From positions 1 through 57,450 of IMG/VR virus record IMGVR_UViG_3300035182_002025: DNA of 57,450 nucleotides. One strand, written 5' to 3'. The notes under the pieces were generated by a model. That model was not told the origin of the DNA, ran no database searches, and saw only the letters and a list, made by a program, of their open reading frames with translations. A program made the position numbers and the translations under genes. The stretch is from a virus. Its lineage: Duplodnaviria > Caudoviricetes. Position 1 is the first letter of the stretch, and each line of letters starts with the position of its first letter. This document shows, piece after piece, positions 9,664-52,164 of this stretch.

Positions 9664-10107
9664 ATGTCAGAATTTATTAACCCGAAAGACCCCGTGGTAG
9701 AAAAGACCCCGGAAGCCTGGACATCCGAGCAAGAGATGTTGGCCAAGGACGCCTTGGTGGTGCTCAAGCGGCATTACAAGGACTACAAGTGGGGGATCGA
9801 GTTTTCAGAGAACGTAGGCAACAGCCTGGGCGTAATGATCATCCGATTATTGGATGTCCCGACTGACACATGCTACGTTATCAACCCCAAAGATATCGAT
9901 CGGGATAGGTTGACGGTAGTGATGCGCGCCGGCGGCGAGATGTTGGAGGCTTTGGGTTTACGAGTGGGCCGCGCCCGCGGTGACGATGTTCGCGGATTGA
10001 AACGCACCCCTGCAGGATTAATCGTGCCAGATTTTGACGCAGTGCCCGTTAATAACCCTGGGTACGCTAAAATTAAACTCGACTTCATGAAGCTTAAAAA
10101 TGGCTAA
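9664..10107 (+). CDS. Hypothetical phage protein upstream of portal
   Basis: AGGAGG RBS; 147 aa; VMRAGGEMLE motif. Confidence 0.7.
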   Translation: MSEFINPKDPVVEKTPEAWTSEQEMLAKDALVVLKRHYKDYKWGIEFSENVGNSLGVMIIRLLDVPTDTCYVINPKDIDRDRLTVVMRAGGEMLEALGLRVGRARGDDVRGLKRTPAGLIVPDFDAVPVNNPGYAKIKLDFMKLKNG

Positions 10108-25680: not shown

Positions 25681-25683
25681 CAC

Positions 25684-34721: not shown

Positions 34722-36616
34722 TGGCCACAGTAGATGCCTTAGTGAATGCGGCTGTAGACAGGGCAGATAGCTTCGCCTTGGCCGCGGCAGACGCCATAGC
34801 CTCAATAGACGCTCGTAAGGGCTCTATCGGCTACGCGCATATAGATATCTCTAACGACGAGATTTCTGCCAAATTTACGGCAGTCCCGGCCGATACAACG
34901 CCGATGCCTGTGTACGAGGACACTACAGTAGCCATGCCGTCCGCGCCTGCGCTGGCCGATCTGCACGGCATTACTCCTCCGGTACTGCCAGACGCACCCT
35001 CCATAAATACCTCCGGGCTATTTACGGCGGTCATGCCTAGCGCGGTCATGCCCGATTGGAATGAGGCCAACCCTGCGCTGCATGTCGACGACATTTACAA
35101 CGATCTAAAAAATCTTGCGGCACCGATACTGCAGGAGTTTGATTTCCCGACTATTACGCCGTTGAGCATACGACAAGCGCCAGAATTGGTATTGCCGGAA
35201 TATATCGCCGCAGACATACCGGATCAAATGCCAGACCCGTCAAATTATGCGGAGTACATGGAGAATAAGTACCGCAATGCGCTGCCGGAGATGAAGGCGT
35301 TTATCGACGACGTGGTCGAAGGCTGGGTGTCGAAATTTGCGCCCGAGTATTATGAACAGCGCGACACCATCCACGCCAAGATAATGTCCGGCGTGGAGGG
35401 CGGCGTTCTCCCAGACCAATTCGAAGAGGCCATGTACTCCAGGGCCAGAGACAAGGTCGAGAACGAGTATTCAGCCGCCGAGCTGACGATCCTTGAGCAG
35501 CAGGCCAAACGAGGTTTCGTGGTGCCGCCAGGGGCAGTGTTTGCCGGTTTGAACAGAGCGCGGTTGCAAGCGGCCGACTCCTTGTCCAACCAAGCCACAG
35601 ACATCTATATCGAGCGCAGGAAAACAGAGGTGCAGCACCTCCAGTTCGTGCTCAATATGGCGTCCACACAGATACAAGGCGTGCGAAGCTTGGCGATTCA
35701 GTATGCCAGTACCGGCCTGCAATTGATCGGCCAGTCCGTCAACTACGCCAAAGATTTGGCCGGTATGCTGGCCCAGACATTTGAGCACGTAAAATCCAAA
35801 CATGAGTTCTCGCTAGCGTTGATGAAAGCGCTTAACGAGCAGTACGAAACCCGATTGAAGGTGGCGATGGCCGGCCTGGAAGGGTACAAACTCGAGCTGG
35901 AAGCCGCCAAGCTTGTTAAGGACGTGGAGTTCAAGCAGGTCGAAGTGATCAAGGCCCAGATAGAAACCCAGACTGTCATGGTCAATCGGTACAGCGCCAT
36001 GGTCGACGCCATAGCCAAGCGCGCGGTAGTTGATGAGCTTAAAATTAAAGAGTACAGTGTGCGCGCCCAGGTATTCGAGACTCAAATTCGCGCCAAAGTG
36101 GCGGCGTTCGAGGCCTACAAAGCGGCCATAGACGGGGATAAAGCCAAGCTTCAAGGCGAGCTGGCTAAGTTGGAGATATTCAACTCCCAGTTGAAGGCTG
36201 CCGATCTAAGCGTCGAAGTGCAGTCGGAAATTTTGAAAGCCGATATCGAAACTAATCGCGCCAGAATTACCCAGTACTCGACCCAATTGGACGCCTACAA
36301 GATCGGATCGCAGATCGCCCTGCAAAAATTTACTGCTGGCGCTGAGATCAAAAAGCTTGGGCTGGAAATCTACAAGACCAACGTGGACGCCAACATTGAG
36401 ATTTACAAAGGGCAGCTACAGGCTGACCTTGCTTTGATAGAGGCCCGCATCAGCGCGTTCAAGGGCAACATCCAGTCCTTGGCGAACTTCTACGAGCTGC
36501 AACAGAAGTACACGCAGTTGGATCTTACAAAAACGGAAGCAATAGCAACCGGATTCTCTTCAATGGCGAGCTCGGCTCTCCAAAGCTTGGGCACTATGGT
36601 GTCGCAAGCGGCATAA
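34721..36616 (+). CDS. Long coiled-coil virion protein
   Basis: Pro-rich N-terminus then extended heptad-like helices; AKRGFVVPPGA motif. Confidence 0.7.
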   Translation: MATVDALVNAAVDRADSFALAAADAIASIDARKGSIGYAHIDISNDEISAKFTAVPADTTPMPVYEDTTVAMPSAPALADLHGITPPVLPDAPSINTSGLFTAVMPSAVMPDWNEANPALHVDDIYNDLKNLAAPILQEFDFPTITPLSIRQAPELVLPEYIAADIPDQMPDPSNYAEYMENKYRNALPEMKAFIDDVVEGWVSKFAPEYYEQRDTIHAKIMSGVEGGVLPDQFEEAMYSRARDKVENEYSAAELTILEQQAKRGFVVPPGAVFAGLNRARLQAADSLSNQATDIYIERRKTEVQHLQFVLNMASTQIQGVRSLAIQYASTGLQLIGQSVNYAKDLAGMLAQTFEHVKSKHEFSLALMKALNEQYETRLKVAMAGLEGYKLELEAAKLVKDVEFKQVEVIKAQIETQTVMVNRYSAMVDAIAKRAVVDELKIKEYSVRAQVFETQIRAKVAAFEAYKAAIDGDKAKLQGELAKLEIFNSQLKAADLSVEVQSEILKADIETNRARITQYSTQLDAYKIGSQIALQKFTAGAEIKKLGLEIYKTNVDANIEIYKGQLQADLALIEARISAFKGNIQSLANFYELQQKYTQLDLTKTEAIATGFSSMASSALQSLGTMVSQAA

Positions 36617-38276
36617 CGTATATGGCGTGCCCACAGTCATATATCCTCCGGTAGCCATTGGCGGTCATATTTTTACTTTCAGATAATTCAGGATCGAAAT
36701 TTTCCAATTTATCTGAAAGTTTATGTTTCTGGAACGCATACCTAGAGTACCTACGTTTATTTTTAACGTAGTGGTACGCGGGTCTGGAAAAACCTTTGAG
36801 CTTGAAACCTACGGCTTCGTAACCGGAGCCATCGAACAACCTCCTATCGCAAAAAGTTTTTACCCCAGCAGGAGAATATTTGCGGATAAAGTATTTAAGC
36901 AATTTTGAAAGTCCCCCTAAAACCTGAGTATTCAATTCGGTACAAAGTCTAACGAGCTCAAACCAACCTTTATCTAAGCCACCCACTGCGCGCCTTTGCG
37001 GTGAAAATGTCGCCACCATAATTAGTCTTTCTTCAAACAGCAGCCCTATCGATATGGGGGCATCGGCCCATCCCTGAATATGGTTTGCGTTCAAAAATTC
37101 TGCAGAGGAGGATTTATCCAATTCGGATATTTTAGTTTTTCTAGCAAACACCTTAGCTTTCGAAGTACCCAAGCGGTTCGATATTATGCTTTTTACTATA
37201 GGCTGTTTCGTATACCACTCGTCCTCGAATATCTGCACCAAGCCTAAACTTGCGGAAATGGCCCTATTTAATTTATCTAAATGGTATCTTGGGGGTCTAA
37301 AAGCGTCGGAGTGGAAATACAGCCCGCAAAATTCAAATCCTACTCGGGCATCTATCGCCAGACAGTCAATTTCGAAAGGGGATATCGCGGCTCTATCTGA
37401 GGTAACGGTATTAGCTATCGACGCTATGTATTCCGCCATTTCAATCTCCGGCCTAGAAGGCCCAGAAACAGAGCATAAAGGACACCCCTGCCCTTGAAGG
37501 TGCATGGCGGGCCTCTGAAAGAATTCACCGTGGGTGTTGCAGATAACCTTTACGTGCGTAACAGAGTCTACGTATTCGAGCTGGGAGTAGTCGTAAACCC
37601 CTCCATGTATAGCTTTGGCTTTACTTATAAAATCTGAAAATGTGTATCTAGTGGAATTTCCAGCGGCAGCCATGCCGCACTTAGCGCACCCTTTTCCTTG
37701 CAAATGGCTATTGGCTTCTTGCTCAAAAACTCCGTGGTCTTTACAAATAATTTTTACTTTAGATGTTGATTTTGAGTATTCAACGGCGGAGTAATCGTAG
37801 GTTCCGCCGTGTATTTCTTTGGCTTTCGCAATAAATGTTTCGGCAGATGATCTTTTAGCTTTTGCCCTAGCGGCTATACCGCATCTAGGGCAGCCTCCGT
37901 TTAAATGGTCAAAGGGGAGGGCGGATATTTGACCGTGGACAGCGCATCTGAAAGAAATCTTTGTGCTAGAGTTTACGTACGCCGTATCGGCGTAATCGAA
38001 TCTATCACCGTGGACGGTCTTAGCTTTAGCTATGAAGGATTCTGTTGTGAGGGTGTGCGATTTAGCGGACTTCTCTACCCCGCACTTAAAGCATTCACAA
38101 CCTCTAAGGTGATAATTTACCTGCTGTAGAAATTCACCGTGCTTAGGACAAACTATTCGCACTTTACCCGAAAGAGTCGCCACTTCAGTTAAGGAGTAAT
38201 CGTATTTAGTTCCGTGCTTTTCCCGAGATAGGGCGATGAATTCTTCAGTCGTAGGACATGTGCGCTTTACGCCCAT
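36594..38276 (-). CDS. Hef-like endonuclease paralog 3 (4 Zn-finger repeats + nuclease + GNAT-like domain)
   Basis: Four HG..(Y/F)DY..C..HG..C..C repeats; EIDC..GFEFCGLYFHS..FEDEW; ELVRLC..GGLSKLL..TFCDRR..YEAVGF. Confidence 0.8.
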   Translation of the reverse strand: MGVKRTCPTTEEFIALSREKHGTKYDYSLTEVATLSGKVRIVCPKHGEFLQQVNYHLRGCECFKCGVEKSAKSHTLTTESFIAKAKTVHGDRFDYADTAYVNSSTKISFRCAVHGQISALPFDHLNGGCPRCGIAARAKAKRSSAETFIAKAKEIHGGTYDYSAVEYSKSTSKVKIICKDHGVFEQEANSHLQGKGCAKCGMAAAGNSTRYTFSDFISKAKAIHGGVYDYSQLEYVDSVTHVKVICNTHGEFFQRPAMHLQGQGCPLCSVSGPSRPEIEMAEYIASIANTVTSDRAAISPFEIDCLAIDARVGFEFCGLYFHSDAFRPPRYHLDKLNRAISASLGLVQIFEDEWYTKQPIVKSIISNRLGTSKAKVFARKTKISELDKSSSAEFLNANHIQGWADAPISIGLLFEERLIMVATFSPQRRAVGGLDKGWFELVRLCTELNTQVLGGLSKLLKYFIRKYSPAGVKTFCDRRLFDGSGYEAVGFKLKGFSRPAYHYVKNKRRYSRYAFQKHKLSDKLENFDPELSESKNMTANGYRRIYDCGHAIYVMPLATP

Positions 38277-38399: not shown

Positions 38400-40289
38400 G
38401 TGAAGAACCGGTTTTTCGCATCGTCTAGCGCCTACGGCCTAATATTACAGGGCGACACTGCGGCCTGTAGCCAGTGGATAGGCTTTGCGCAAGGCCAATT
38501 GCAAGGTATTTTAGCCCGCCAGACAGGCCCAACCACGATACTGCTGGAGCCTAAACCCGGCGTACAAATACGGATAGACACAAGGCCGAATAAAATCAGC
38601 ATCACAGTAGCCGGGGGCTTGCTCATAACGGTTATGGACAAGGACAGTACTGTGGATTCAGCAGGCGGAACGGTGTCAACCGCACCTTTTCAGCCAAAAG
38701 ATATGCGCTGGATGTACTCTAAAAGTACAGTGTCCTCTAGAAAATCAAATTTTTATTCTGGGGGATTTAGCAAGTTTGGCAGCGGCAGCAGCTTTTCCCC
38801 TCCGTATTTTAGCCGGGGAGGATATTGGGTGGACGACGAAGGTGGAAAAGCCTTAAGTTGGGTCAGCAGAAAACCAAACGGCGCGGCCAATAATATGGTC
38901 AACACCTTATTCATAGGCGGCAAATACGGCTCCGTACCGTCTTCCGGCGGTAGGTACGTCACCTACGGGTGCATTGTAGATAAAACCACCCTGGGAGTGG
39001 CGCTTGCGGTAGACCTATCGATATACAGATATGTAGTAGCGCTGATATTTACTAACTACACCACTTCTGCCACCACGCTGGAAGTTTACGGGTGCAGTCC
39101 GACTGTAACCTCGGAATTTATACCGACTCAGATATCTACCACCGCTATAACTCTGCCAAGCGCTAATTTAACGGGGTTCAACGCTACAGCCAGGGAGATG
39201 GCGGCGTTAAGTTATGCAGGCGCAACACAGAGCGTGGACATACTGACTTTTAACTCTACGTATACGGGTTTTTCCAGCACCACGGAGTATTCCGCCACGT
39301 ATACTAGGGTAGAACAGACCTTCGAAATATCTGTAACACCTACTACCCCATTTTTTGACGCCTTCATGGAGCACGACCGTAGTACGGCCGTTATTTCAGG
39401 GGATCCGCTGGCCGTTCTAATAGCCGCTGATGGGAAAGGATTTTCAGTGTTAAGGGAGCAGGTGACTACCTATTCCGACAATTACCATGCGGACGAAAAA
39501 AACGTAGGGGATGGCGCGCTGTTCTCTGGGTATAGGCACGCCACAGACTCAAAAAATACCGCTGGGTACCTGGATATGATGTACCTCCAGACTGGAGAAG
39601 CCCCCGCATTCACGGCGACTTTTGGAGCGTATACGACGTCTGCATCTGGATTTGAGAACCTTGAATACGAGGCCTCTGCCGTAGACCCCTACATAACTTA
39701 TGAAAGGTCTACTACTGCCGTGAATAAATTCTACGCGATCCAGCACTTTTCAGCGAGAACAGGTAGCGCCATATTTGTTGAAATTACCAACACCGAAACC
39801 TCAACTGATACTAGCGTAGTGAGATTAGGTTCAAACGATACGGAATACTCTATTACGACAGATAACGCCAAGGAGACAAAAGTGCGAGTACTTGATGGCG
39901 GGGTTTTTAGGACTATAAAAACTACTACCGACACGTTCTCCTCTTCGGATACCGGGGTGCTTTTCGGCACACAATCTACGGCCATAAACGATGTGCTAGC
40001 CGATATATCCTCTGATCATTCGCCATCCATCACTGTCTCTGACGCAGGATCTCTAGTATCCAGCAGGGATAATTTAGCGGGAACGGCGGCTACAGCCACG
40101 CTGGTTATGTCGAATATTACAGTGCCGTATAACGCTAGCGGGAACACGTTCGCTGAGTATGGCGTAACGGTAATAGCGGATATCCCTAGCGCTACGCAGG
40201 TGTTATTAGAGTACAGGTTAGATTTAGACCCGGCGTATTCTAGCGGGGGAATAACGTCCCCTATTAGCGTAACGCAAAAATCTTTTTAA
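38400..40289 (+). CDS. Ser/Thr-rich putative virion protein
   Basis: 629-aa ORF in the tail module; no catalytic motif seen; start uncertain. Confidence 0.65.
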   Translation: MKNRFFASSSAYGLILQGDTAACSQWIGFAQGQLQGILARQTGPTTILLEPKPGVQIRIDTRPNKISITVAGGLLITVMDKDSTVDSAGGTVSTAPFQPKDMRWMYSKSTVSSRKSNFYSGGFSKFGSGSSFSPPYFSRGGYWVDDEGGKALSWVSRKPNGAANNMVNTLFIGGKYGSVPSSGGRYVTYGCIVDKTTLGVALAVDLSIYRYVVALIFTNYTTSATTLEVYGCSPTVTSEFIPTQISTTAITLPSANLTGFNATAREMAALSYAGATQSVDILTFNSTYTGFSSTTEYSATYTRVEQTFEISVTPTTPFFDAFMEHDRSTAVISGDPLAVLIAADGKGFSVLREQVTTYSDNYHADEKNVGDGALFSGYRHATDSKNTAGYLDMMYLQTGEAPAFTATFGAYTTSASGFENLEYEASAVDPYITYERSTTAVNKFYAIQHFSARTGSAIFVEITNTETSTDTSVVRLGSNDTEYSITTDNAKETKVRVLDGGVFRTIKTTTDTFSSSDTGVLFGTQSTAINDVLADISSDHSPSITVSDAGSLVSSRDNLAGTAATATLVMSNITVPYNASGNTFAEYGVTVIADIPSATQVLLEYRLDLDPAYSSGGITSPISVTQKSF

Positions 40290-40356
40290 GGAGCCCGCTA
40301 ACCGGAAACAGGGAGGAGTCTGTTGATGGACCGATTAGCAGGCTAAACTTTAAGCT

Positions 40357-43242
40357 GTGAGCCGTCGCGACTTTATCGTAAAATGCGGCGAACCGCAACC
40401 CGAACGTGATGTTCGCACGTACCCATTTGAGGATAGCTCGATGCCAAGACCAGCCCCTGAAGACACTGTACCCGCCATGCTTGCCCCCGGGGAAGCAGTT
40501 CTCAATAAAGAGGCCTCCGACTTGGTGGGGCGAGGTGTAATCGCTGCCGCCAATAAGGCAGGGCTGGAGGTGCGCAGAAAAGGTATTGTGCCACAAGCGG
40601 ATTGCACTGGCCCTGTTCCAGTCCATGTGCCGGCGCAAGGCTATGTTGACGGGACAGAATCGGTCCACCCAGATTACTCAGCGACAACCTTGTTGTCAGG
40701 TCAGGCTACTCCAGAAGCTATTGCCGGTCATGAAGTTAAGGACAAGCTCGCTTCAAAAGGCCAGAATTTTTACGGTAACACGGCTGCGCCTGCTACCCCT
40801 GTGCAGGGCTACTCCGAAGGCGTTTCTGACGTGCCGGACCCAAACAGCAATAACTTCGTCAATCAGTCTACCGGTGTAACGACATTAGGCGGCGGGGCAA
40901 ACGGGCAGTCTACCGCCAACAAATACGCCAACATCGCGCAGCCTATGTACGGTACCCCAGGCGTATCAACAGGCCCGGCCAATAATGATCTTGCCAAGCA
41001 AAATTTCGGCGCCCGTGCGCAAATGGACCAAGCCATCAGCTATGGTAAAGCAGGCGGTATGGACGCCGCATCAGGCATCATGAAAGATATCGGTAAGAGT
41101 AAGCCAAAAGGGCTGGCGCCGACCTTTGCGCCTATGCCAAGTCTAGGTACCTCTGCGCGAGTTGATCTGGGCGGATTCACCGACATCCAGGGGTTTAATG
41201 ACGGCACCGCAAAAGTCGGCGATCTGCCCGACATGCAAAAAGTAGCCAACCAAATCAAATACCCAGAGGCCAACCAGCCCGGAACGCCAAACCAGACTCA
41301 CGGTTTTACCGGCGATCCGCACGCCCCTGAGCCGCAGCCTATGCGCCCCGGCCCAGCCGGAGCACCTGAAGGCGCTTACACGTCAAAATTTACGCTCAAC
41401 GGCCAGAACATGTCTGGTCCTGGTACCGATTTAGTTCCGGCAAAAAGCGCCGGTATCGTACCGTCCAGGCCAGTAAAAAGACCAGTACCTTTGGCGCAGC
41501 CAGTCACCGGGCCTTACCGCAACGTAACTTTTGACCATCCTGTAGCGGCGGGCAAACAGCTTGCTCCTGCGGGGAAAGGCCAGATGGCACCACAAGGGGA
41601 GGCGTACGTTAACTACGAAGAGTCCGCTACCATGAAGCCTCAGCAGTTTCGCCCAGGCCCTGGAGGAGCCCCCGTTGGGGATTACGAAGTAAACTTCGCC
41701 AATGACGGCCGCGTAGCAGGGCAAAAAGCTTTGCCGGCCCCAGAAGCGCCTCCAGCCGCTGCGGCGCAAGGGTATTCGGCGGAGGAATTGGCGGCCCTGG
41801 ATAAAGTAAAAGCGGCCGGGAGAGCTCGTGTTGACGCTATTAAAAACGGTACCGCTCAGCCGTCTGCAGGGCCGGCGCCTGCCGCCGCTGAAGCCGCTCC
41901 GGCCGCTCCGGCCGAATCATCCCCCGCACAGTCTCCTAAAGCTTCGAAGATCCCAGGAATTGTTGGCGCTGCGGCGGCATTGACTGCAGGGTATAACAAG
42001 CTAAAAGAGAACGTCCAAAAACCGGACGCCTTTTCTCTTACTAAACCGTTACCCTCCAAAGAGCAGTTGCGCGCTAATATCCGTAGTAGCCTAGACGAGC
42101 AAAAAGCAAACCTGGAAAAGCCATCCGAGTTTTCTAACGTGAAGGCCTCTATGCAGGACATGGGCTACGGCCCAGTACCCGCGGCACTCGGTGCGGGAGC
42201 GGTACGTTTAGCGGATCAGGTTGCGCCTATGGTAGAAGGGGGTAAACAGATGGCCCAAGACGTAGCGGGGCTTTTCAAAACGCCAGACGCTACGCCAGCA
42301 CCAAAAGGCACTGTCACTAAATTGGTAGAGCCGGCGGTACAGCAGCCTGCCCCTGAAGCGCAGGATCAAACTCCGGCCGGCACAACATTCGCGCCTGCTA
42401 GATATACGCCTGAAGACATTAATGGCCAATCTCGCGTTAACATCGATGAGAAAAATTACGTCCAGTCTGCCGACAAGGCTGGTATGTCCAGGGTCGCTGC
42501 GGGGCTGCAGGATCGGGAGAAGCGCGGAATAAACTTCCTACCGCCAAAACAATCTGACGCGGCGACCAAAGCGGGTACCACTGACTTTTGGATGAACCGC
42601 GGATTACCCGGCGGCGCAGCCCAAGACGCGCAGCAAAAACAGCTTGCGCAGATTCAGGACATAGCCTTGAACGGTGGCGGCAGGGGCGACATGACCGTGT
42701 CCCAATACCGTAACGCCAACGCGCGCCAGAAGGTCGCCCAAGGCATTTTGGCCGACCTAACTCGTGCCGGCACAGAGCGAGATAAAATGGCGGTCGACAA
42801 AGAAACGAACGCCAATGTCCGTGAGCAAAATGCGCTGGAGAAAAAAGCGTCCCGAGACTTGAAGGAGCGCGAGCTTAAGCAGAGCGCCACGCAACACGCC
42901 GATACCATTGCGCAGAAGAAAGAATCCGACGAGAATAAACTGATCACCGCGCAGTTCGGTGATGAGAAGCGGACGATTCGCCAGGGCGATTACCCTGCTG
43001 AGCAGGCTAAGTTCGAAAAAGCTCAGCTTTCTCAAAATATTGCGGCCAGGACAAAAGCGCTGGACACTACGTTTACCTCGCAAGATTCTGCGTATGATCA
43101 AGCCCTGGCAGAAGCGTTGCCGGAGTATGCCAAAGCGAAAGCGTTCCTTAGTGATTCCAGGCTCACTCCCGAAGAACGGGCCAGTGTACAATCTCGCATA
43201 GACGCAATTAAAACAGAGCATGCCGGAGCACTTAATGGCTGA
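40357..43242 (+). CDS. Putative internal virion/ejection protein (start may be ATG 40441)
   Basis: DTVPAMLAPGEAVLN motif; repeated QG(Y/F).(D/E)G...V; low-complexity P/A/Q/G; coiled-coil end. Confidence 0.7.
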   Translation: MSRRDFIVKCGEPQPERDVRTYPFEDSSMPRPAPEDTVPAMLAPGEAVLNKEASDLVGRGVIAAANKAGLEVRRKGIVPQADCTGPVPVHVPAQGYVDGTESVHPDYSATTLLSGQATPEAIAGHEVKDKLASKGQNFYGNTAAPATPVQGYSEGVSDVPDPNSNNFVNQSTGVTTLGGGANGQSTANKYANIAQPMYGTPGVSTGPANNDLAKQNFGARAQMDQAISYGKAGGMDAASGIMKDIGKSKPKGLAPTFAPMPSLGTSARVDLGGFTDIQGFNDGTAKVGDLPDMQKVANQIKYPEANQPGTPNQTHGFTGDPHAPEPQPMRPGPAGAPEGAYTSKFTLNGQNMSGPGTDLVPAKSAGIVPSRPVKRPVPLAQPVTGPYRNVTFDHPVAAGKQLAPAGKGQMAPQGEAYVNYEESATMKPQQFRPGPGGAPVGDYEVNFANDGRVAGQKALPAPEAPPAAAAQGYSAEELAALDKVKAAGRARVDAIKNGTAQPSAGPAPAAAEAAPAAPAESSPAQSPKASKIPGIVGAAAALTAGYNKLKENVQKPDAFSLTKPLPSKEQLRANIRSSLDEQKANLEKPSEFSNVKASMQDMGYGPVPAALGAGAVRLADQVAPMVEGGKQMAQDVAGLFKTPDATPAPKGTVTKLVEPAVQQPAPEAQDQTPAGTTFAPARYTPEDINGQSRVNIDEKNYVQSADKAGMSRVAAGLQDREKRGINFLPPKQSDAATKAGTTDFWMNRGLPGGAAQDAQQKQLAQIQDIALNGGGRGDMTVSQYRNANARQKVAQGILADLTRAGTERDKMAVDKETNANVREQNALEKKASRDLKERELKQSATQHADTIAQKKESDENKLITAQFGDEKRTIRQGDYPAEQAKFEKAQLSQNIAARTKALDTTFTSQDSAYDQALAEALPEYAKAKAFLSDSRLTPEERASVQSRIDAIKTEHAGALNG

Positions 43243-46200
43243 TTCAGATAGCATTATCGATACGCTTTCCGCTAAGTATGGGGCGCAATCCCCCGAAAGT
43301 GAAACGCCATCCTCTCCTATTGATACGCTCGAGCAGAAGTATGGGGCGGCAGATACTTCACCCGTTCGAGGCACCCTGGCCGAGGTAGGAAGACAGGTAG
43401 GTGCAGGCGCCGTCGTAGACCTTCCGGAAATGACCGGTAAAGCTATTCAGGCGTTATCGCCTACGGACAGCGGCGTCAATCGGTTTGGTAAGGAAATGCG
43501 CGAAAACGCAGAGGCTAGGGCGCCTGGATGGGAGCCTGATCTGCGTGACAAAGGTGAGGTGGCCCAGGCCGCCATACGCGCCGGTAGAGCCATCCCAGCC
43601 AGCGTGGCGCCCATAGCTTTGAGTGCAGTGCCCGTTGTAGGGCCAGAGTTATCCCTGGCTGCGACCGGCGCGCTGTTCGGCGGTAGCCAATACCAAGACA
43701 CCTACGAAAAATTAATTAGCGAAGGCGCATCGCCGGAAGAGGCAAAGGAGGCCGCTTTAGGTACTGCGGCTACCCAGGGTGGCGGCGAGATGATCGCCAA
43801 CAAACTTACCGCCGGGGTATTAGGCGCTGGCAAAAACGTAGCGGCCAATACGATAGGTGGCCTTACCGGCCAGTTAACTGAAAAGGCCGCGTTGAAAACC
43901 GCGGCTAAAGATTTCGGAAAGGCTTATGCGGCTGATCTGGTCGGCGAGCCCGCCACAGAGATTGCGCAAGACACCGCCACAGAGGCCATAGAGCGCGCAT
44001 ACGGCGCTAACCCTTCTACTGGGTACGGTGACATCGCGTACCAATCAGGTACGACTGCGCTGGCCATGGCGGCCTTGTTAGGCCTTCCTGGCGCCGGTGG
44101 ACACTACGCCAACCACAAACGCGCCGAATTAATAGACCAGACCTTAAACGATCCGGCCTCGCCAGAAAGCGCCAGACTGGCGGCTGTCAACGGCATTTAT
44201 AACCGCGCGCAATCGCAAGGTATCCAAGACGCCGACGAATGGCGAGCTGGCGCACTTGAAGATATTGCGGCCGGCAGACCGATTCGCCGTGATACCGCCT
44301 CTATTCCGGCAGCCGCTGTCGCCCAACAGCAGGCGGAACAAAGCGCAGCCCCTGTGGTACCGGAACCAAATGCCCCTCAATCCGTTCCGGAAACTATCGC
44401 CCCGGCTCCCGTACCGGAGCAAGCTGCAGCACCTATAGTTCCGGAGCAAGCCGTTACACCCGAAGCTCCAGCCCCGGCAGAACCCGATCTGAATGCTGTT
44501 AAAAATTTCGTGTCTGCGCAGGAGGCACGCTGGGCTAACACGCCTGATAGGCCAAGGGGCACTAACCCAGCCATGCGCAACGTGGCGACAGACTTAGGCC
44601 TGGATCCGAAAGCGTTTACCAGTGCAGAAGATTTGATGGGCGCTATAAAACAGCGCGTCAGCGATATCGAAACGCCTGCGCCAAAAACTCCAGGCCAACA
44701 AGTGGCTGAGGATATAGCGGGCAAAGGCACTATCAGTGACATGCTGGCAGGGCATCCAGAAATTCTGGATACCGATATGAGTATGCAACAGGCAGCGGCT
44801 CAGGCTGAAGAGCAAGCTGCCGCGGCTGGAGCGCATCCAGAACAAGTTGAACGGGCCGCAGGCGAAGAGCAAGCGCCGGTATACGTCGACGCTACTACAG
44901 GCGAGATCCTTGACGGGGCTATCTCGGAAGAAAATGCCTACTCGCCAGAAAAAATAGCCGCTTTAGACGATGCAACGCTGTCGGCGCTTTCCAAAAACTT
45001 ATCCGGCCAAAGGCTGGCCGCGGTCCAGCAAGAGTTGTTACGCCGTAAAGCGGCAGGAGGCGAGAATGCCGAGCAAATCCCAGGCGCAGGCCAAAATGAT
45101 GTCGGCGGTGGCGCACAATCCGAAGTTCGCGGAGAAGGTGGGGATACCCCAGTCGGTGGGCCTGGAGTTCCACCAAGCAGACAAGAAAGCGGGAATATTC
45201 AACAAGAGCAATCCGAAACACCCATACCACAGGAGGTAACTGAAAATGGCAAAAGCGAGAACCCAACCACGCAAGAAACAGCCGCCCAAGAAGAAATAGC
45301 GGCGGGCGACTACGCTCCGGCAGCAACTTTGTCCGAAGCGGCGAACGCTACTGAGGCGGCCAAAGCGGATACCCCCGAGCAGGATATTCAGAACGGCGAC
45401 TACACTAAGGGAGTTTCCGCAGAATACGCCGGATTGCCTATCGCCATAGAGAACGCCGCCGGATCACAACGTACCGGTACTAGCCCTGACGGTAGGCAAT
45501 GGTCGCAAACAATGCGCGATCACTACGGCGAGATTGTCGGTGCGGAAGGTGCAGACGGCGATCACGTAGACGTATTCGTTAATCCGAATGGCGCGGTTAC
45601 CAAAACAGCATTTGTCATCGATCAGGTAGACCCTAATACTGGCCTATTTGACGAGCACAAAGTGGTGCTCGGGTACCCAAATAAAACCGCAGCCGCGCAG
45701 GCGTATTTAAGCAATTACGAAGAGGGGTGGAAGGGTCTGGGAAGTATTACCGGGATGACCTTGCCAAACTTCAAAAAATGGTTGGCTACGCAGGATACTA
45801 CCAAACCTGTGACATCTACGGCGAAAGTAAAAACGGAGAATCATGTCGCCGCCGCAGCAGAGCCTAAAGAGTCCGGTGAAGGTCAAAGGCTGGAATCTGC
45901 CAGACAAGCGCTAATATCCGCCGTACCAGACGGAAATTTGGAGATGCTTTTTGGCGCAAAGCTGGGTAAAACTCGCCAGCAGCTAATGCGGATACTTACT
46001 GGCGACCCTAAATGGCCCGCCAATAAATCCGGCATGTCCTGGTTACGAGACACGTTTTATAAAATGGCGGGTATACCTGACGGTTACGCAGCGGCAGTTC
46101 GGCAGGACGCTTTTAAATCTTGGGCGAAAGGTCAATCCGATTCTACAGAGCCCCCGACGCCTCTTCCTGAAAGCGCACCACGGGCGGCCACTTCTGTAGC

Positions 46201-46402
46201 CGACAATAGCAGAGCGCTGGAAACTATCTTCGCCAAAATAGACACCACTCACCCTAACCCGGCTGAATTGCGCGAGATGTTGAAAGACAACCCGTTCAAA
46301 GAGCAGATCACGTACGTAGTCGACCACGGCTTCGAAATTTTCCAAGACTTGTTGAAGTCTGATAAAAACCCGAATGGGAAGGTAGAAAGAGTATGCCCGT
46401 AA
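43235..46402 (+). CDS. Large ejection-type polyvalent protein with InPase (inorganic pyrophosphatase-like) domain
   Basis: Gly/Ala-rich helical N-half; IAIENAAGSQRTG...WSQTM.DHYG.I....GADGDHVDVF...DQ....FDEHKVVLG; GGAG RBS before ATG 43235. Confidence 0.85.
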   Translation: MADSDSIIDTLSAKYGAQSPESETPSSPIDTLEQKYGAADTSPVRGTLAEVGRQVGAGAVVDLPEMTGKAIQALSPTDSGVNRFGKEMRENAEARAPGWEPDLRDKGEVAQAAIRAGRAIPASVAPIALSAVPVVGPELSLAATGALFGGSQYQDTYEKLISEGASPEEAKEAALGTAATQGGGEMIANKLTAGVLGAGKNVAANTIGGLTGQLTEKAALKTAAKDFGKAYAADLVGEPATEIAQDTATEAIERAYGANPSTGYGDIAYQSGTTALAMAALLGLPGAGGHYANHKRAELIDQTLNDPASPESARLAAVNGIYNRAQSQGIQDADEWRAGALEDIAAGRPIRRDTASIPAAAVAQQQAEQSAAPVVPEPNAPQSVPETIAPAPVPEQAAAPIVPEQAVTPEAPAPAEPDLNAVKNFVSAQEARWANTPDRPRGTNPAMRNVATDLGLDPKAFTSAEDLMGAIKQRVSDIETPAPKTPGQQVAEDIAGKGTISDMLAGHPEILDTDMSMQQAAAQAEEQAAAAGAHPEQVERAAGEEQAPVYVDATTGEILDGAISEENAYSPEKIAALDDATLSALSKNLSGQRLAAVQQELLRRKAAGGENAEQIPGAGQNDVGGGAQSEVRGEGGDTPVGGPGVPPSRQESGNIQQEQSETPIPQEVTENGKSENPTTQETAAQEEIAAGDYAPAATLSEAANATEAAKADTPEQDIQNGDYTKGVSAEYAGLPIAIENAAGSQRTGTSPDGRQWSQTMRDHYGEIVGAEGADGDHVDVFVNPNGAVTKTAFVIDQVDPNTGLFDEHKVVLGYPNKTAAAQAYLSNYEEGWKGLGSITGMTLPNFKKWLATQDTTKPVTSTAKVKTENHVAAAAEPKESGEGQRLESARQALISAVPDGNLEMLFGAKLGKTRQQLMRILTGDPKWPANKSGMSWLRDTFYKMAGIPDGYAAAVRQDAFKSWAKGQSDSTEPPTPLPESAPRAATSVADNSRALETIFAKIDTTHPNPAELREMLKDNPFKEQITYVVDHGFEIFQDLLKSDKNPNGKVERVCP
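45066..45239 (+). CDS. Nested (+1 frame) small basic protein, 57 aa, MPSKSQAQAKMMSAVAHNPKFAEKVGIPQSVGLEF...
   Basis: AGGAGG at 45055-45060; resembles a small phage protein family I recognise as MPSKS.AQ..MAAVAHNP.FAKKVGIPQSV..EF. Confidence 0.72.
   Translation: MPSKSQAQAKMMSAVAHNPKFAEKVGIPQSVGLEFHQADKKAGIFNKSNPKHPYHRR
45246..45299 (+). CDS. Nested (+1 frame) Lys/Arg-rich peptide MAKARTQPRKKQPPKKK
   Basis: AGGAGG at 45231-45236; same frame as, and 6 nt after, the first nested ORF. Confidence 0.5.
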   Translation: MAKARTQPRKKQPPKKK

Positions 46403-46887
46403 AATCACTGTTAGACCCATCGACCGAGATCCTGTTGGAAGAGGCCATTTCTCAGGAGATCCATGCGTCCCACCTTTACAAACATCTGGCTAACCAATGC
46501 CAGCGCTTAGGCCTATTAGGCGCGGCCAAGTACTTCCTGGCAGAGAGTGCGGAAGAGCTTACGCACTACCAGAAAATAGCGGATTACGTTAATGACAGAG
46601 GTTCGGTAGCGTTCATCCCTGACATACCGGCAGTGACATTACCGATAAAATCCCTGAACGATGCGCTGCTGGCGGCCTACAACGCCGAAGTGGCGCTAGG
46701 CCAAAAATATGAGCAGTGGTACGGGATGCTGTGCAGTTCCGACGTTACCACCGCGCAATTCTTGCTACAATACCTGGAAATACAACGGATAAGCATTGGC
46801 GACTACGGTGATCTGCTGGCCAGGATAGATATGGTCGGTGCTGACCGCGCCGCTATCCTGATCATAGATTCAGAACTCGGAGATTAA
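46393..46887 (+). CDS. ftnA: Non-heme ferritin (FtnA-like)
   Basis: QEIHASHLY, GAAKYF..ESAEELTH..KIADYVNDRG, AYNAE, D.TTAQFL.QYLEIQ, IDSELG. Confidence 0.88.
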   Translation: MPVKSLLDPSTEILLEEAISQEIHASHLYKHLANQCQRLGLLGAAKYFLAESAEELTHYQKIADYVNDRGSVAFIPDIPAVTLPIKSLNDALLAAYNAEVALGQKYEQWYGMLCSSDVTTAQFLLQYLEIQRISIGDYGDLLARIDMVGADRAAILIIDSELGD

Positions 46888-46893
46888 GTCCCT

Positions 46894-49800
46894 ATGGCCG
46901 GCCCCTGCAAATACCGCTTTACAGATAAAAATGGAAACGAGGTAGAGTTGGGGCTTTCAGCCTTCAAGGCGTACCTAGCCGATGGGGGTCTTGAACAGTT
47001 TTATCCGGCAAAAGATTTTCCGTGGCAGGCTCAATTCTCTAGGCCTGCAGCGCTCCCTGAAAAGATCAACATTGATGGCAAAGAGCGCTGGACGGTCAAC
47101 AGTTCTGGCCGTCCCATCGCCAGCACCGAAGAAGCCGTTCGCAACTTTTGGAACTGGTTTACAGACAGCCAAGTTGTAGACGATCAAGGCAGACCGATTG
47201 TGGTCTACCACGGCACAACCCACGATTTCTCAAAATTCGACATAGGTCAGGCCGGCCAAAAAGATTCAGGCTGGTACGGCACCGGCATTTACGTAACGCC
47301 AGACGCCAACACGGCCAGCGCTTACGCAGACTACGATCAAGAGGCTACCGGTCAAAACGTCATCCCGATGTACGCCAAGATCGAGAACCCGTTCATCTGG
47401 TCGCGAGATATTAAGCCGTCCGGGTCAAAACCCATCAGCGATGACTTCACTCGACTGTTCAAGAACGCGGGCCACGATGGGGTTTTTGCAGAAAATAAGT
47501 ACGCAGCGCCAGAGCACCAGAAATGGTACGAGATGGTCGTATTCCATCCAGAAAACCTAAAAGCTGCATACGGAAACAACGGTAACTTCAGCGCGGAAGA
47601 TACCGATATTCGGTATTCGCGAAACGCGAATACTTCTGGCGAACGTATATCGGAGGCCGATGCCGCACAACACCTGAAAGACAATTTCGGTGTTGGCATT
47701 GATAATCTGATCCGCCAAAAAGTTTTAAACTTCACGCACGGTAAAGCTACGTGGCCTGAGAACGCCAGGAACGCCGCCAGAGGCGATGAAGAAGCGGTCT
47801 ATACGAACGGTAAGGCATACATCGATTTGGACGCCACCGGCAAAGGTCGGCTGAATGCTGTGGTATTACACGAACTCGGCGAGCACTACGGCCTGCAGCG
47901 CATGTTGGGCGAGCAAGCCTACAAGTCTTTGCAGCAACAAGTGATCGCCAGGGCAAAAATACCAGGGTCAAAAGCCGCTGCGGTTTGGGCATCCGTAAAA
48001 GCGGATTACGGCCATTTAGAAGAAGGCAGCCCAAAATTCGTGGCCGAAGTGATCGCCAAGTTAGGTGAAAACGATCCTAAAGCGCCATGGTTCCGCCGCC
48101 TACTTTCCCAGATCAAAGCGTTCTTGATGCGTATGGGTTTGGCTAGGGGGCTGACGGCTGGCACCGTCACAGAATCTGATCTACACGACTTATTACGGGC
48201 CAGCTTGCAGCGCGCTGCCAGGGGTTACGTAAAAGACGACGTCCAGGTATTTGGCGGAAATCCGCAACCCGCGTTCAGTGCTTTAAAATCTTCTGCTTCA
48301 TGGACCGCCGAAAGAATAGACTCATTATTTGGGAACTTTGCCTATACGATGGACGACGATAAGACAAAAGCTTTCGCAGGATTTGTATCCCCTGAAGAGT
48401 TCCTGGACGCTACTACCACCCCCACGCTATTAGCGCAAATAGAGTCGGAATCGAGGCCACTATCCGTAGAAGATATGCGGGATGAGCGCCAGCCTATAAT
48501 ACTGTTCGGTGACTACGACGGAACCACCTTTACCACGGACGGGCATGAGGGGCGGCATAGGATGGTAGCTCTGCGAGATAGCGGCGTAAAAAAAGTCCCA
48601 GTCGTATTTCACATAGGGCAAGGGAAGAAGCTATTTGCAGTTTCGAACGTAAATGTTACGGGCCAATATATTTCAGGTTCTGCTAAATCCGGAGGTGAGG
48701 TATACGGTAGGGGCTTCAAATTGCCTGAAGCTATCCCGATAAATTACGCCAATAAAGCGCGGGTAGAAGCATTTTTCGGCGTAGATTCGGACGCACAGTT
48801 TTCTCGCCCTAGTTTGGAGGCCGTCAAGCAGCGCATACTGCGCAATGACCAAGGCGACCCTACGCTCACCGCCCAGGCCATCAGAAAGCTTGAGGAAAAG
48901 TGGGGCGCTGTTACCAAGCAGCGTTTCGCCGCGCTTAGCGTCAGGCAGATGGTCGAGTACGCCAAACGGATCATGCCTGGGTTGGAGTCGTATCAGATCC
49001 ACATGCAACAGCGGGAAGCCACCGTTAACTCGATATTGCGGGTAGCGGATCGGTTAGTATCCGAGGTGTGGAAAAAGTTACCTTTGCGCGTTCAGAAAGA
49101 TTTGGCCGCCGTCATGCACGGATCAACTATCGCCGACATAGACGCCTCCAAAGCTTGGACTGGCACTTTTAAAAACGCGGCCGATACCGGTCAGGTTATG
49201 GGCTTCAACGCCTATACCCAGGAGGCCTTTACCCCTGGTAGAAAAGCCGCGCTGTTAAAGCTGGCTATCGATAACGGGGCGCTGAAACAGCATGACGACA
49301 AGGAAGGCACTGACGATCCTACGCTGTACCTTGATCGGAACGGGTACCTGTTCAAAACAGAGGCCCAGGCAAAAGCTTTCGTGCTGCGCATCCAGGAAAT
49401 GATAGACGCGCAGCGCAAAGATAGATCCCGTATCGGCGCGCCAGACGAGAATATTAACCGCCAGAACGAGCACGCCAGAATAGTGCCACTGTACGAGGCT
49501 CTGGATCCAAAAGCCCAGTACGTGTACGCCGAATCCAACCGCCTGCACAACGACATCTCTTCGCGCAGGCTGGAGGTCCTGTTGGAGCGCATCGGCAGTG
49601 CAATCGCCAACGGGCAAAAGCGTAAGCAATTGATCGCGCAAATGCGCGCGCAGTTCGAATCGAACTCACTCAACTGGTATTACGCCCCGCTGTCGCGTTT
49701 CGGTGAGTTCTGGTTCTACGGCAAGGACAAAGACGGCCAAAAACGCTTCAGCACCTACGAGTCTGATAAAGCGCGCAATGAAGCCGTTAAGAATTACGTG

Positions 49801-52164
49801 GCCGCCGGCAATGAGCTCGTGGGCCAAGGTAAATCGATGTCAGGTTTGAGCCTACTTGAAGGTAAAGCCCCTTCAGACGATTTCGTGCTTAAGATTCAGG
49901 AGATGATCAGCGGCATCAGCGATATGCCTCAGGAATCCAAGGTTAAAATACAGGACCAAATTTACCAGATGTATCTGGAAACCCTGCCAGATGTATCGGT
50001 AAGGCATAACCGCATGCACCGTAATGACACCCTTGGCTTCGAGGAAGACGCCATGCGGTCATTCTCTAACTCTCAGCACCATGGCGCCACCCAGTTGGCG
50101 AACATGCTCCACGGCGGCGATATGAAGGCCGTGTTGGAAAAACACATTGAGGCCAAGAAATTGGCTGAGCGCCCAGACACTCAACAGTACCTGGACACAG
50201 AGAACGAGGCTGCCGAACTGCTTAAAGATCGGTGGGACGAGTTAACACCCGAGGCTTTGCGCGACATGCTGGCCGGATTCGAAGAGCCCGCTGCCGACGA
50301 TAAAGTATTACGTAAAGCCCAAGAGCTCAGGAGCAAGCTGTACGGCATGAACGCCGATGAAGCCGGCGATGCCCTTGACCGTATAGTAATAGCCAACGAA
50401 GAGCTGACCACCGCGGCTAAACTCATCAAAAAAGAGGACATCAACCGCGCCAGCGATGTGCTGGACGAGCTGCTGAAAACCTACGATTTCATGGTGAATT
50501 ACAACAGCACCGAAATGGATAAGGTGGCCTCCTCCATCAACCAGATGAACTTCATCGGGATGCTGGGCTTCAGCTTGTCGTCTGGCCTAGTCAACTTGAT
50601 CCAAACGCCGGGTGTCGCTATGCCGGTGGCATCTGGGCGCTACGGTGTCGGCGCAACCCTGCGGGAGTTCGGAAAAGCCTATCGGGAATTCATGAAAGCG
50701 TTCTCGCAGAAAAAATACGACGTGGACGGTAACGCCTCCATCTCTGCGCTGCTCCAGGAGCAGTTAGACGCCCTAAAAGCGCGACCAAATTCTAGCGCTA
50801 ACGAGGCTGAAATTCAGAGAATCGACGAAGAAATTTGGGCTATGGAAAAGTTCAAAGAGTTCGGAGACATCTCGCGCACCAGAACCTCTGACATCATGGG
50901 GGTTGCGCAAGAGGGCGCCACCTACGGCGGTAAGTTCCACGATTTTGCGCTAAAAGCCGGCTGGATGTTCCACCACGGCGAAAGGTTCAACCGCGAGGTT
51001 ACCTTGATGGCGAGTTTTAGAATGGCCCTGCAAGGTAATGCCGAATTAGGCGTTCCTCCGCTGGGGAAAGAAGCCGCGCTAGATTACGCGCGTAACGTCA
51101 ACAATCGTTCGCACTTGGACTACACGTCAGAGAACGCTGCGCGCATATTCCGAGGCCCTTTGGCCAAGATCGCCTTGCAGTTCAAAAAGTACCAGCAGGG
51201 CATGCTGTACTTGTGGACTCGTACAGCTATCGACGCATGGTCTACGGTAAAAGAAGAAAACTTCGATACCAAAGCGGCTTACGAATTCGCTGTTGCGGAA
51301 ATGCGTGAGTCTCGCAGAACCTTCTTTGCGCTGTTGGCTATGCAGGCGTCCACCGCCGGCATGTTCGGGCTGCCTATGATGGGCATGGTCGGCGTAGCGT
51401 ATAAGATGATCGCGCAAGCTTTCGGCGACGATGACGATCCGCACGAACTGGAAAAGGACTTGCGCCTGGGCCTGGGTAAGCTATTCGGTCAAACCGCCGC
51501 AGAGGCCATGTCTAAAGGCGTGGTGAATACCTTTACCCCTATCAACTTGGCGTCCAGGCTTGATCAGAAAGACGTGTTCTTCCACGAGCCTATGAAAGAG
51601 CTGGAGGGTCGTGATGCCGGTCAGAATTACGTGGCGGCACTGTTCGGCCCAACCGGTGGCACCGTCGAAAAGGTGTTCCAAGGTATGTCTTACCTGTCAG
51701 ATGGGTACTACGGCCGGTTCCTAGAGTCCATAATGCCCAAAGCGGTGGGCGATATAGCCAAGGCCGCACGGTTCTCAGCCGAAGGCGCCAAAACGCTAGA
51801 CAACATGCCTTTGAAGGACATGTCGGCGTTCGAAAGCTTCGCCCAGGCGATGGGTTTTGGAAGTTCAGGGCTGGAGCGTAAATACGCCGAACGTGGCTTC
51901 GCCAAAGGCGAGGAAGCGGCGATAAAAGATACCCGCACCAAAGTTATGCGGGAGGCTGCGTGGGCCAAGGTGAAGGGCGAGCAGCCTGATATGCAGGCTA
52001 TACGCGATTGGAACATGAAACACCCTGAAAAGAAAATCCTGCCGGAGCATTTATCCGCTTCGGTCAAGGGCATCAAAGAGAGTGTCAAGAAACGCCAAGA
52101 GCGCGGATACGTTGTCGATCCTAAGTTGGAATACTTGTACGAAGAGAACGATCTGCCGGAATAA
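46894..52164 (+). CDS. Giant polyvalent protein: ART-PolyVal ADP-ribosyltransferase, zincin-like metallopeptidase, ParB-like and PLxRFG domains
   Basis: FWNWF.DSQVVD..GRP.VVYHGT...GIYVT..ASAYA; VVLHELGEHYGL; HEGRHRMVAL; YAPLSRFG; helical C-terminus. Confidence 0.85.
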   Translation: MAGPCKYRFTDKNGNEVELGLSAFKAYLADGGLEQFYPAKDFPWQAQFSRPAALPEKINIDGKERWTVNSSGRPIASTEEAVRNFWNWFTDSQVVDDQGRPIVVYHGTTHDFSKFDIGQAGQKDSGWYGTGIYVTPDANTASAYADYDQEATGQNVIPMYAKIENPFIWSRDIKPSGSKPISDDFTRLFKNAGHDGVFAENKYAAPEHQKWYEMVVFHPENLKAAYGNNGNFSAEDTDIRYSRNANTSGERISEADAAQHLKDNFGVGIDNLIRQKVLNFTHGKATWPENARNAARGDEEAVYTNGKAYIDLDATGKGRLNAVVLHELGEHYGLQRMLGEQAYKSLQQQVIARAKIPGSKAAAVWASVKADYGHLEEGSPKFVAEVIAKLGENDPKAPWFRRLLSQIKAFLMRMGLARGLTAGTVTESDLHDLLRASLQRAARGYVKDDVQVFGGNPQPAFSALKSSASWTAERIDSLFGNFAYTMDDDKTKAFAGFVSPEEFLDATTTPTLLAQIESESRPLSVEDMRDERQPIILFGDYDGTTFTTDGHEGRHRMVALRDSGVKKVPVVFHIGQGKKLFAVSNVNVTGQYISGSAKSGGEVYGRGFKLPEAIPINYANKARVEAFFGVDSDAQFSRPSLEAVKQRILRNDQGDPTLTAQAIRKLEEKWGAVTKQRFAALSVRQMVEYAKRIMPGLESYQIHMQQREATVNSILRVADRLVSEVWKKLPLRVQKDLAAVMHGSTIADIDASKAWTGTFKNAADTGQVMGFNAYTQEAFTPGRKAALLKLAIDNGALKQHDDKEGTDDPTLYLDRNGYLFKTEAQAKAFVLRIQEMIDAQRKDRSRIGAPDENINRQNEHARIVPLYEALDPKAQYVYAESNRLHNDISSRRLEVLLERIGSAIANGQKRKQLIAQMRAQFESNSLNWYYAPLSRFGEFWFYGKDKDGQKRFSTYESDKARNEAVKNYVAAGNELVGQGKSMSGLSLLEGKAPSDDFVLKIQEMISGISDMPQESKVKIQDQIYQMYLETLPDVSVRHNRMHRNDTLGFEEDAMRSFSNSQHHGATQLANMLHGGDMKAVLEKHIEAKKLAERPDTQQYLDTENEAAELLKDRWDELTPEALRDMLAGFEEPAADDKVLRKAQELRSKLYGMNADEAGDALDRIVIANEELTTAAKLIKKEDINRASDVLDELLKTYDFMVNYNSTEMDKVASSINQMNFIGMLGFSLSSGLVNLIQTPGVAMPVASGRYGVGATLREFGKAYREFMKAFSQKKYDVDGNASISALLQEQLDALKARPNSSANEAEIQRIDEEIWAMEKFKEFGDISRTRTSDIMGVAQEGATYGGKFHDFALKAGWMFHHGERFNREVTLMASFRMALQGNAELGVPPLGKEAALDYARNVNNRSHLDYTSENAARIFRGPLAKIALQFKKYQQGMLYLWTRTAIDAWSTVKEENFDTKAAYEFAVAEMRESRRTFFALLAMQASTAGMFGLPMMGMVGVAYKMIAQAFGDDDDPHELEKDLRLGLGKLFGQTAAEAMSKGVVNTFTPINLASRLDQKDVFFHEPMKELEGRDAGQNYVAALFGPTGGTVEKVFQGMSYLSDGYYGRFLESIMPKAVGDIAKAARFSAEGAKTLDNMPLKDMSAFESFAQAMGFGSSGLERKYAERGFAKGEEAAIKDTRTKVMREAAWAKVKGEQPDMQAIRDWNMKHPEKKILPEHLSASVKGIKESVKKRQERGYVVDPKLEYLYEENDLPE

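Follow-up and report, generated by a model that had tools for sequence, protein, structure and literature searches.

A conserved, strongly basic small open reading frame nested with a second small gene in the linker of a giant polyvalent phage protein gene

Can the gene for a giant phage protein also carry, in another frame, small genes of its own? The question is raised by a locus in a viral DNA (Duplodnaviria; Caudoviricetes), the IMG/VR virus record IMGVR_UViG_3300035182_002025 (57 kb, with an estimated completeness of 63%), of which positions 1 to 57,450, the whole stretch analysed here, are referred to as the window. Open reading frame (ORF) calls together with Pfam and PHROG matches place on its + strand a gene for a 1060-residue polyvalent protein of the virion-internal type (43220-46402), which we call the host gene, and two small ORFs lie one behind the other inside it, on the same strand and both in its +1 frame: S (45066-45239), of 57 residues plus TAA, and ORF2 (45246-45299), of 17 codons plus TAG, which translates as MAKARTQPRKKQPPKKK. 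A preliminary description had proposed that ORF2 is a second nested gene, a protamine-like peptide with its own ribosome-binding site that forms a hidden two-gene operon with S. Letters and translation agree with its account of the junction: an AGGAGG at 45231-45236 supplies the last two arginine codons of S and at the same time a strong Shine-Dalgarno sequence, abuts the TAA at 45237-45239 that closes S, and stands 9 nucleotides before the ATG at 45246 that opens ORF2. From its translation, its homologues and the pattern of substitutions, we regard ORF2 as very probably a real coding frame maintained by selection.

The homologues were reached by several routes. A protein search with the host linker found three relatives, P0003, P0004 and P0005, the last of which is encoded by the DNA of locus L111; the +1 frame of L111 reads MPSKSPAQ…NNQR and a stop, then a single leucine codon, then MTKARTQPRKKNHQKKGKK and a stop. 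P0003 and P0004, available as protein only, each contain exactly one site compatible with an S start and exactly one compatible with an ORF2 core, separated by 60-62 codons. Searched with a degenerate pattern for the core of ORF2, IMG/VR gave six loci, and GTDB genomes gave one true homologue (L126) among six hits. Because that pattern returns intact cores alone, a second one was drawn up in which the host frame was specified and its 11 wobble positions were all left open. It returned six loci from IMG/VR, every one with an intact ORF2 and one of them, L121, newly found, and four from GTDB, of which one was the L126 contig, a true homologue with ORF2, and three were chance hits in short ORFs with different wobble states and without ORF2. 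The relatives thus comprise eight contigs (L112-L117, L121 and L126), with L117 and L111 counted as one locus. An exact scan of IMG/VR for the 23-nucleotide junction found nothing further, and a blastn search of 45200-45310 against phages gave seven hits, all weak and unrelated.

In all nine loci, the window included, ORF2 occupies the +1 frame of an ORF with 811 to at least 1344 open codons, and in the eight homologous loci, as in the window, it lies wholly inside that ORF on the same strand. The peptides, 16-19 residues in total, share the core M[ATS]KARTQPRK[KN], followed by 5-8 mostly basic residues and a stop (9/9 loci). They read MAKARTQPRKKQPPKKK in the window, MTKARTQPRKKNHQKKGKK in both L117 and L116, MTKARTQPRKNNHRKKGKK in L121, MTKARTQPRKKPTRKR in L112, MAKARTQPRKKPTRKR in L115, MTKARTQPRKKPKRRNK in L113, MSKARTQPRKKPTRKNK in L114 and MTKARTQPRKKVPPKKR in L126. 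All nine are basic, and apart from one valine in L126 none contains an aromatic or large aliphatic residue. On the reverse strand of L126 (718-921) a +1-frame ORF of 67-68 codons (MPTITAEAAAKLIQQQ…SSIEEH), without a PHROG match, has a TAA that abuts the ORF2 ATG, in the place taken elsewhere by S; it may be a further nested gene or a chance open stretch.

The evidence for selection comes from the 33-nucleotide core, compared in nine sequences, eight of them distinct. Counted by host codon position, the variable columns number six, two and none at first, second and third positions, and counted by ORF2 position they number two, none and seven, so that 0 of 11 host wobble columns vary. Pairwise codon differences divide into 103 synonymous and 28 non-synonymous in the ORF2 frame, and into 0 synonymous and 123 non-synonymous in the host frame. 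Among the columns that the host-frame pattern leaves free, 6 of the 7 outside the wobble positions vary and none of the 11 at wobble positions does (Fisher p = 3.8e-4), and over 20 codons L116 and L117 differ at seven nucleotides, all seven synonymous in ORF2 and none in the host frame. A wider comparison was made by codon alignment of the window with L111, which had been retrieved by host-protein similarity with no use of an ORF2 pattern. In the InPase domain, which gives the baseline for ordinary coding in a single frame, host-wobble identity is 0.29, and before S it is 0.35; it rises to 0.75 over S and 0.88 over ORF2, and falls to 0.20 just after ORF2. Frozen host wobble positions combined with ORF2-synonymous variation indicate purifying selection on the small frame and not on the host frame. 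Judged by these substitutions, the peptide frame is shown to be under purifying selection, and the host frame over ORF2 changes freely yet stays open. It is open across the cassette in 9/9 loci; for the genes of this phage, a 78-codon stretch read in the -1 frame lacks a stop by chance in just 3.5% of cases. The proposal of a second nested gene is borne out to this extent, by selection in its own frame in nine sequences and by its position behind a bona fide family member, S.

The same conservation might be read as that of a linear motif in the host protein (N-[DG]-[QK]-S-Q-N-x-T-x-Q-E, serving for example in processing or docking), or of an element that acts as nucleic acid, for instance an RNA structure or a recombination 'boundary' at which domains are shuffled, with ORF2 incidental to either. 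The cassette does occur beside different domains, before InPase in the window, L117, P0003 and P0004, after InPase in L113 and L114, and before a GGDEF-like domain in L116, as would be expected of a shuffling junction or a linker motif; the N, S, N and E of the host motif never vary, and some 20 nucleotides upstream of the ATG are conserved also in loci without S. A host motif, however, would leave its wobble positions free, yet none of the 11 varies, whereas host first and second positions vary in eight columns with changes of charge (K/Q/E and E/Q/T), and the invariant host residues are those forced by the ORF2 codons. Nor would a nucleic-acid element vary with a period of three, as seen in the seven of nine variable columns that are ORF2 third positions, or show AGA>CGA, which is Arg>Arg in ORF2 and part of an E>T change in the host. 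The tail differs in sequence and in length, yet remains basic and meets its stop after 16-19 codons in 9/9 loci, and Rfam matched no family over 44800-45600. We consider an explanation by motif or element unlikely.

S, the upstream neighbour of ORF2, is preceded by an AGGAGG of its own (45055-45060), 5 nucleotides before the ATG at 45066 and with an anti-Shine-Dalgarno energy of -10.3 kcal/mol. It matches phrog_16759 with E 2.9e-20 over profile positions 1-52 of 58, which we count as full-length, and also the N-termini of two families annotated as 'virion structural protein', phrog_22033 and phrog_25121 (for example Escherichia phage 121Q gp51). Homologues were found in 148 phage records by tblastn and at 62 IMG/VR loci, and the carriers identified by tblastn include 121Q, GAP32, CBB and phiKZ-like phages; in the 39-kb Stenotrophomonas phage BUCT555, S is a 52-residue gene behind the portal gene. 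It always stands at the start of a gene, either free-standing (46-71 residues, with a basic tail) or as the first module of a protein of 94-263 residues, and begins MPSKS.AQ, with M1, P2, S3, K4, S5, A7 and Q8 invariant in 30 sequences. A structural model comprises three helices and a disordered tail (mean predicted local distance difference test score, pLDDT, 75.8). Searches of Pfam, NCBIfam and PDB sequences gave no match, and Foldseek of the model against PDB gave none at E <= 0.001, the top rows being weak three-helix DNA-binding domains. In its N-terminal start and its tight coupling to the next cistron, S resembles phrog_16759 and the N-terminal module of jumbo-phage virion proteins, and by its family membership it is a real gene.

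How S came to be nested is a separate matter. Among 66 S loci only that of the window lay inside a giant out-of-frame ORF, to which L116, L117 and L121 were later added, all three retaining a GGAG-type site ahead of S. Nesting of S in the giant ORF appears to be derived, the long ORF having grown over it. On the reverse strand of L121 the S start position, about 180 nucleotides upstream of the ORF2 ATG, reads ACG and not ATG; the S frame is otherwise open and conserved, the ORF2 behind it is intact, and S may there be decaying or may use a non-canonical start.

The junction between the two genes bears on the proposal of a two-gene operon, which holds in part. The same tandem is present in the window, L116, L117/L111 and L121, and between the S stop and the ORF2 ATG there are 6 nucleotides in the window, 3 in L117 and 0 in L116 and L121 (4/4 S-bearing loci), but ORF2 occurs without S in five of the nine loci (L112-L115 and L126; tblastn for S at E <= 1), which makes it an independent unit rather than just the downstream member of an operon. 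Close coupling is a habit of S generally. In 24 of 27 distinct contexts of short S genes that stand free, the start of the following gene lies between -20 and +6 nucleotides from the S stop, and the last codons of S double as the initiation region for the gene that follows. No free-standing ORF2 was found, nor any ORF2 counterpart behind free-standing S genes; the genes behind S in L072 and L078 encode proteins with basic N-termini, for which no informative family was obtained. In L112 and L115, which lack S, about 20 nucleotides resembling the S 3' end (tcacaacccaca…) are retained some 30 nucleotides upstream of the ORF2 ATG, and this is possibly a conserved initiation region of ORF2.

Selection at the level of the peptide cannot show how translation enters the frame, and ribosomes might reach the +1 frame other than from its own ATG. 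A programmed +1 shift out of the host frame would yield a host protein cut short and ending in a basic tail; reading through the S stop would yield S extended by such a tail. Free-standing S proteins do have strongly basic tails (…LPKRVSGRGR, …TVKKKR), and the nested ones have His/Pro-rich tails followed by ORF2. An ATG is nevertheless present in 9/9 loci, eight of which were found by routes that do not require one (the window itself, L111/L117 by protein similarity, and six by the host-frame pattern, where this position is AAY), and ORF2 is kept in the five loci without S. In six of nine loci, including two of the five without S, an in-frame stop lies 0-6 nucleotides before the ATG, which leaves two codons at most for a shift; the sequences just upstream of the ATG have no slippery site in common, and the tails contain no conserved homopolymer or X XXY YYZ motif. 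On these grounds a way into the frame by frameshift or read-through is quite improbable. Two related ideas were rejected: that ORF2 is the severed basic tail of S, as S in the window terminates at the same point as its closest homologue, of 58 residues (L025), and ORF2 persists without S; and that a frameshift leads from ORF2 back into the host frame to give a shorter InPase isoform, an idea at odds with the lack of a conserved slippery site and with downstream domains that vary between loci.

Initiation at the ORF2 ATG itself is well provided for in the window. The anti-Shine-Dalgarno duplex before it (-11.6 kcal/mol) ranks with the strongest that the window contains, and only 2% of sampled host-gene positions reach -9 kcal/mol or lower. 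The contention that two such pairs in tandem look non-random is upheld by the window as a whole, where AGGAGG-N4-11-ATG occurs 11 times against 2.6 +/- 1.8 expected, a number reached in 0 of 100 shuffles. At 25608-25742 a separate AGGAGG-N6-ATG (ATG at 25620) opens a 40-codon out-of-frame ORF that spans the end of the ORF at 24094-25680 and the start of that at 25684-28935. No promoter-like site was found upstream of S, and because of this we take ORF2 and the host protein to be translated from one and the same late mRNA. In the window its start would be served by the consensus Shine-Dalgarno sequence made of the last two arginine codons of S.

Several observations weigh against coding by ORF2 or limit how far the comparison reaches. 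The Shine-Dalgarno sequence is not conserved: in six of eight relatives the pairing energy, -2.1 to -4.3 kcal/mol, is that of the background (mean -3.2), and in the other two, L114 and L126, it is moderate at about -6 kcal/mol. The claim that the peptide has its own ribosome-binding site therefore stands for the window only; a lack of conservation in relatives had been named as what might refute the gene, and on that test ORF2, being conserved, is not refuted, although the perfect ribosome-binding site is not conserved with it. The codon-usage score is -0.11 bit per codon in the ORF2 frame against +0.59 in the host frame, over just 17 codons. The basicity arises in part from a host frame rich in E, Q, A, P and T, in which GAA and CAA become AAR in the +1 frame. 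The family is small, at nine DNA sequences, and three contigs share the sample prefix 3300020045, which limits their independence; both search patterns require the core or the host motif to be kept, so that diverged or decayed copies would escape them. Finally, S is absent from all 43 other host-protein relatives examined in IMG/VR, metagenomes and GTDB genomes, which have at most 51% identity, and the cassette is accordingly dispensable for InPase polyvalent proteins.

Some of these points would suit an ORF2 without function, a chance ORF in a basic-looking +1 frame or the decaying start of whatever gene followed S in a donor operon. The codon score is not coding-like; the junction of Shine-Dalgarno sequence, stop and ATG comes with S, whose next gene lies within a few nucleotides in 24/27 contexts, and an ATG 4-11 nucleotides after a given AGGAGG is expected in roughly 12% of cases (our estimate, with ATG taken to occur at about 1/64). 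A relic or chance ORF, on the other hand, would not keep its amino acids through at least 12 third-position changes, nor outlast the deletion of S in five loci, nor have a wobble identity of 0.88 where the flanking linker DNA has 0.20-0.35. Recent near-identical copies are ruled out by the flanks, since mean identity is 0.88 in the core and 0.28 in the 60 nucleotides after the stop. With 8 lysine and arginine residues in 17 and no acidic residue, ORF2 lies in the top 2.4% of 1043 17-codon windows from the +1 frame of the host gene (mean 3.65), which is extreme for that frame and not typical of it. A functionless by-product is, in our judgement, very improbable. Among the candidates rejected, the relic start of a donor's next gene was set aside on amino-acid-level conservation; the view of basicity as a pure by-product of an acidic host frame is true only in part, as ORF2 is the most basic +1 stretch and the host frame drifts.

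Taken together, we have good confidence that ORF2 is a translated micro-gene that encodes a polycation of 16-19 residues in the +1 frame of a giant gene for a polyvalent virion protein, at the part that specifies its disordered linker. SD-poor, A/C-rich leaders can support initiation, and in the relatives translation might begin by termination and reinitiation, where the S stop lies 0-6 nucleotides from the ATG, or from weak A/C-rich initiation regions poor in Shine-Dalgarno pairing. A single host-synonymous change, Asn AAT>AAC, would remove the ORF2 start and leave the host protein untouched.

What the peptide might do can be suggested from its composition. With 8-9 lysine or arginine residues, no acidic residue, almost no hydrophobic one and two P-[KR]-[KR]-[KR]-like turns, polyanion binding would be expected, and the product is most likely a soluble polycation, whose ligand might be DNA or RNA, or the acidic linkers of co-expressed internal proteins. 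The preliminary description had suggested something close to this, namely basic peptides that would neutralise or condense packaged DNA or chaperone the acidic protein. Given that ORF2 is real, polyanion binding in or around the virion is a tentative assignment that we would not call probable. Protein J of the Microviridae is a small, basic DNA-binding packaging peptide with a hydrophobic C-terminal capsid anchor; ORF2 has no such capsid-binding segment. The term protamine-like is apt in so far as 8 of 17 residues are lysine or arginine and all nine homologues are basic, and inapt in that the hydrophobic C-terminal segment of protein J is wanting. Tailed phages package naked DNA by a motor, and we know of no role for a free peptide there. 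Protamine-like proteins of eukaryotic viruses are described for adenovirus (VII) and baculovirus (P6.9) (PMC12159748, PMC5899202, PMC10548178). With J, VII and P6.9, ORF2 has in common a very short K/R/P-rich polycation encoded by a virus and made late, the last of these by prediction.

Nested phage genes are familiar from Rz1 within Rz, the lambda spanin genes, and from E within D and B within A of phiX174. The present locus resembles these in having a complete out-of-frame gene with its own start inside a longer gene, both frames being open, and Rz1 is likewise in the +1 frame. It differs from them in that two cistrons stand in tandem, in the disordered inter-domain linker of a giant polyvalent protein, that the second has just 16-19 codons, and that the products are predicted. 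It also departs from the usual course of overprinting, as the longer gene seems to have grown over pre-existing small genes, or at least over S. Free-standing homologues of S are numerous and the host frame across it is of low complexity, and for these reasons the ORF most likely grew across the small genes: S would be older than the overlap, the polyvalent ORF would have been extended or fused across it, and the -1 reading of the small genes would now serve as the inter-domain linker, which would then be the overprinted frame. No free-standing ORF2 was found, and the direction of overprinting is therefore supported for S alone. With S the older (more than 60 free-standing homologues) and the linker the newcomer, the order would be the reverse of the usual one, in which a new gene arises on an old one.

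In Escherichia coli, nested out-of-frame small proteins have been found by initiation-site ribosome profiling and are described as mostly poorly conserved (bioRxiv 10.1101/511675). Like those, the present ORFs lie inside annotated genes and are invisible to gene callers; unlike those, which were found by experiment, ORF2 is known from sequence and has a strong signature of conservation. Gene callers miss both nested genes, and the protein database searched records the host ORF as one protein (P0002, P0003-P0005). We found no paper on the ORF2 core, the N-terminal motifs of S or phrog_16759. ORF2 would accordingly represent a family of conserved phage micropeptides so far unrecorded, in a new setting, nesting itself being known in phages.

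The host gene gives that setting. In its protein a long disordered linker joins an N-terminal domain, common to giant phage ORFs, to an InPase domain (residues 721-855; 45380-45784, + strand; Pfam PF18823, E 1.8e-47) downstream of the nested pair. Residues 160-867 match the DarB-like polyvalent phrog_10089, and P0003 is an orthologue with 47% identity over the full length; megablast with the host gene found nothing that matched among phages. By PHROG, terminase, portal (10673), major capsid (15312), tail-fibre and virion protein genes lie upstream of four large ORFs at 38400-52164, and the 1756-residue neighbour of the host gene bears ART-PolyVal and LPD39 (Pfam). A giant multidomain protein, domains specific to polyvalent proteins and a late, virion-related context, all features of phage-type polyvalent proteins, are found together in the host gene. 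Proteins of the InPase type are regarded as packaged and injected (Iyer et al. 2017, PMC5512222), and the locus resembles those they describe in its InPase domain and in the ART-PolyVal and LPD39 domains of its neighbour. The main text of that article has 0 occurrences each of 'overlapping', 'frameshift' and 'alternative frame'. The host gene is best described as encoding an InPase-bearing polyvalent protein in a late structural operon, its packaging and injection being putative; the label 'ejection protein' in the preliminary description is of the same inferred kind. In L007 the N-terminal domain and InPase lie in a single ORF of at least 1953 codons without a nested gene. The stretch 40357-52164, a single giant ORF in relatives (at least 1953 codons in L007, at least 1346 in L005), is here divided into four abutting or overlapping ORFs of 961, 1060, 164 and 1756 residues, the 164-residue one, a ferritin-like protein (PF00210), lying between two of the others.

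Polyvalent proteins are thought to be packaged arsenals of counter-defence, and a co-expressed, selected polycation could lead to an understanding of how acidic giants are packed and delivered, or to a new small effector. A broader proposal is that the disordered linkers of giant injected phage proteins harbour hidden genes: that the polyvalent ORF overgrew small genes, its linker now bearing S and a polycation family known only in nested form; that the charge of the polycation is the counterpart of that of the acidic linker, which is read from the same stretch of DNA; and that it travels into the capsid on internal proteins or DNA, to serve as a counter-ion or to be co-injected and act as an effector. 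Taken as a whole, this is doubtful.

Other features of the window concern its endonucleases and an exonuclease. Five HNH or homing-endonuclease genes are present (5791-7311, 7317-8792, 36594-38276 on the - strand, 10100-10645, and 54126-54683 on the - strand). Three of them are large phrog_559 paralogues, two of which directly follow the terminase large-subunit ORF (4099-5715) as a tandem pair, and a small HNH gene lies between a ribonucleotide-reductase-like ORF (53494-54129) and an ORF related to phrog_16943/phrog_474 (54685-55299), a placement that suggests insertion of endonucleases into genes. The adjacent ORFs 66-467 and 487-1068 match the two halves of the exonuclease family phrog_724 (positions 4-126 and 138-302 of 312), and are a split or frameshifted gene.

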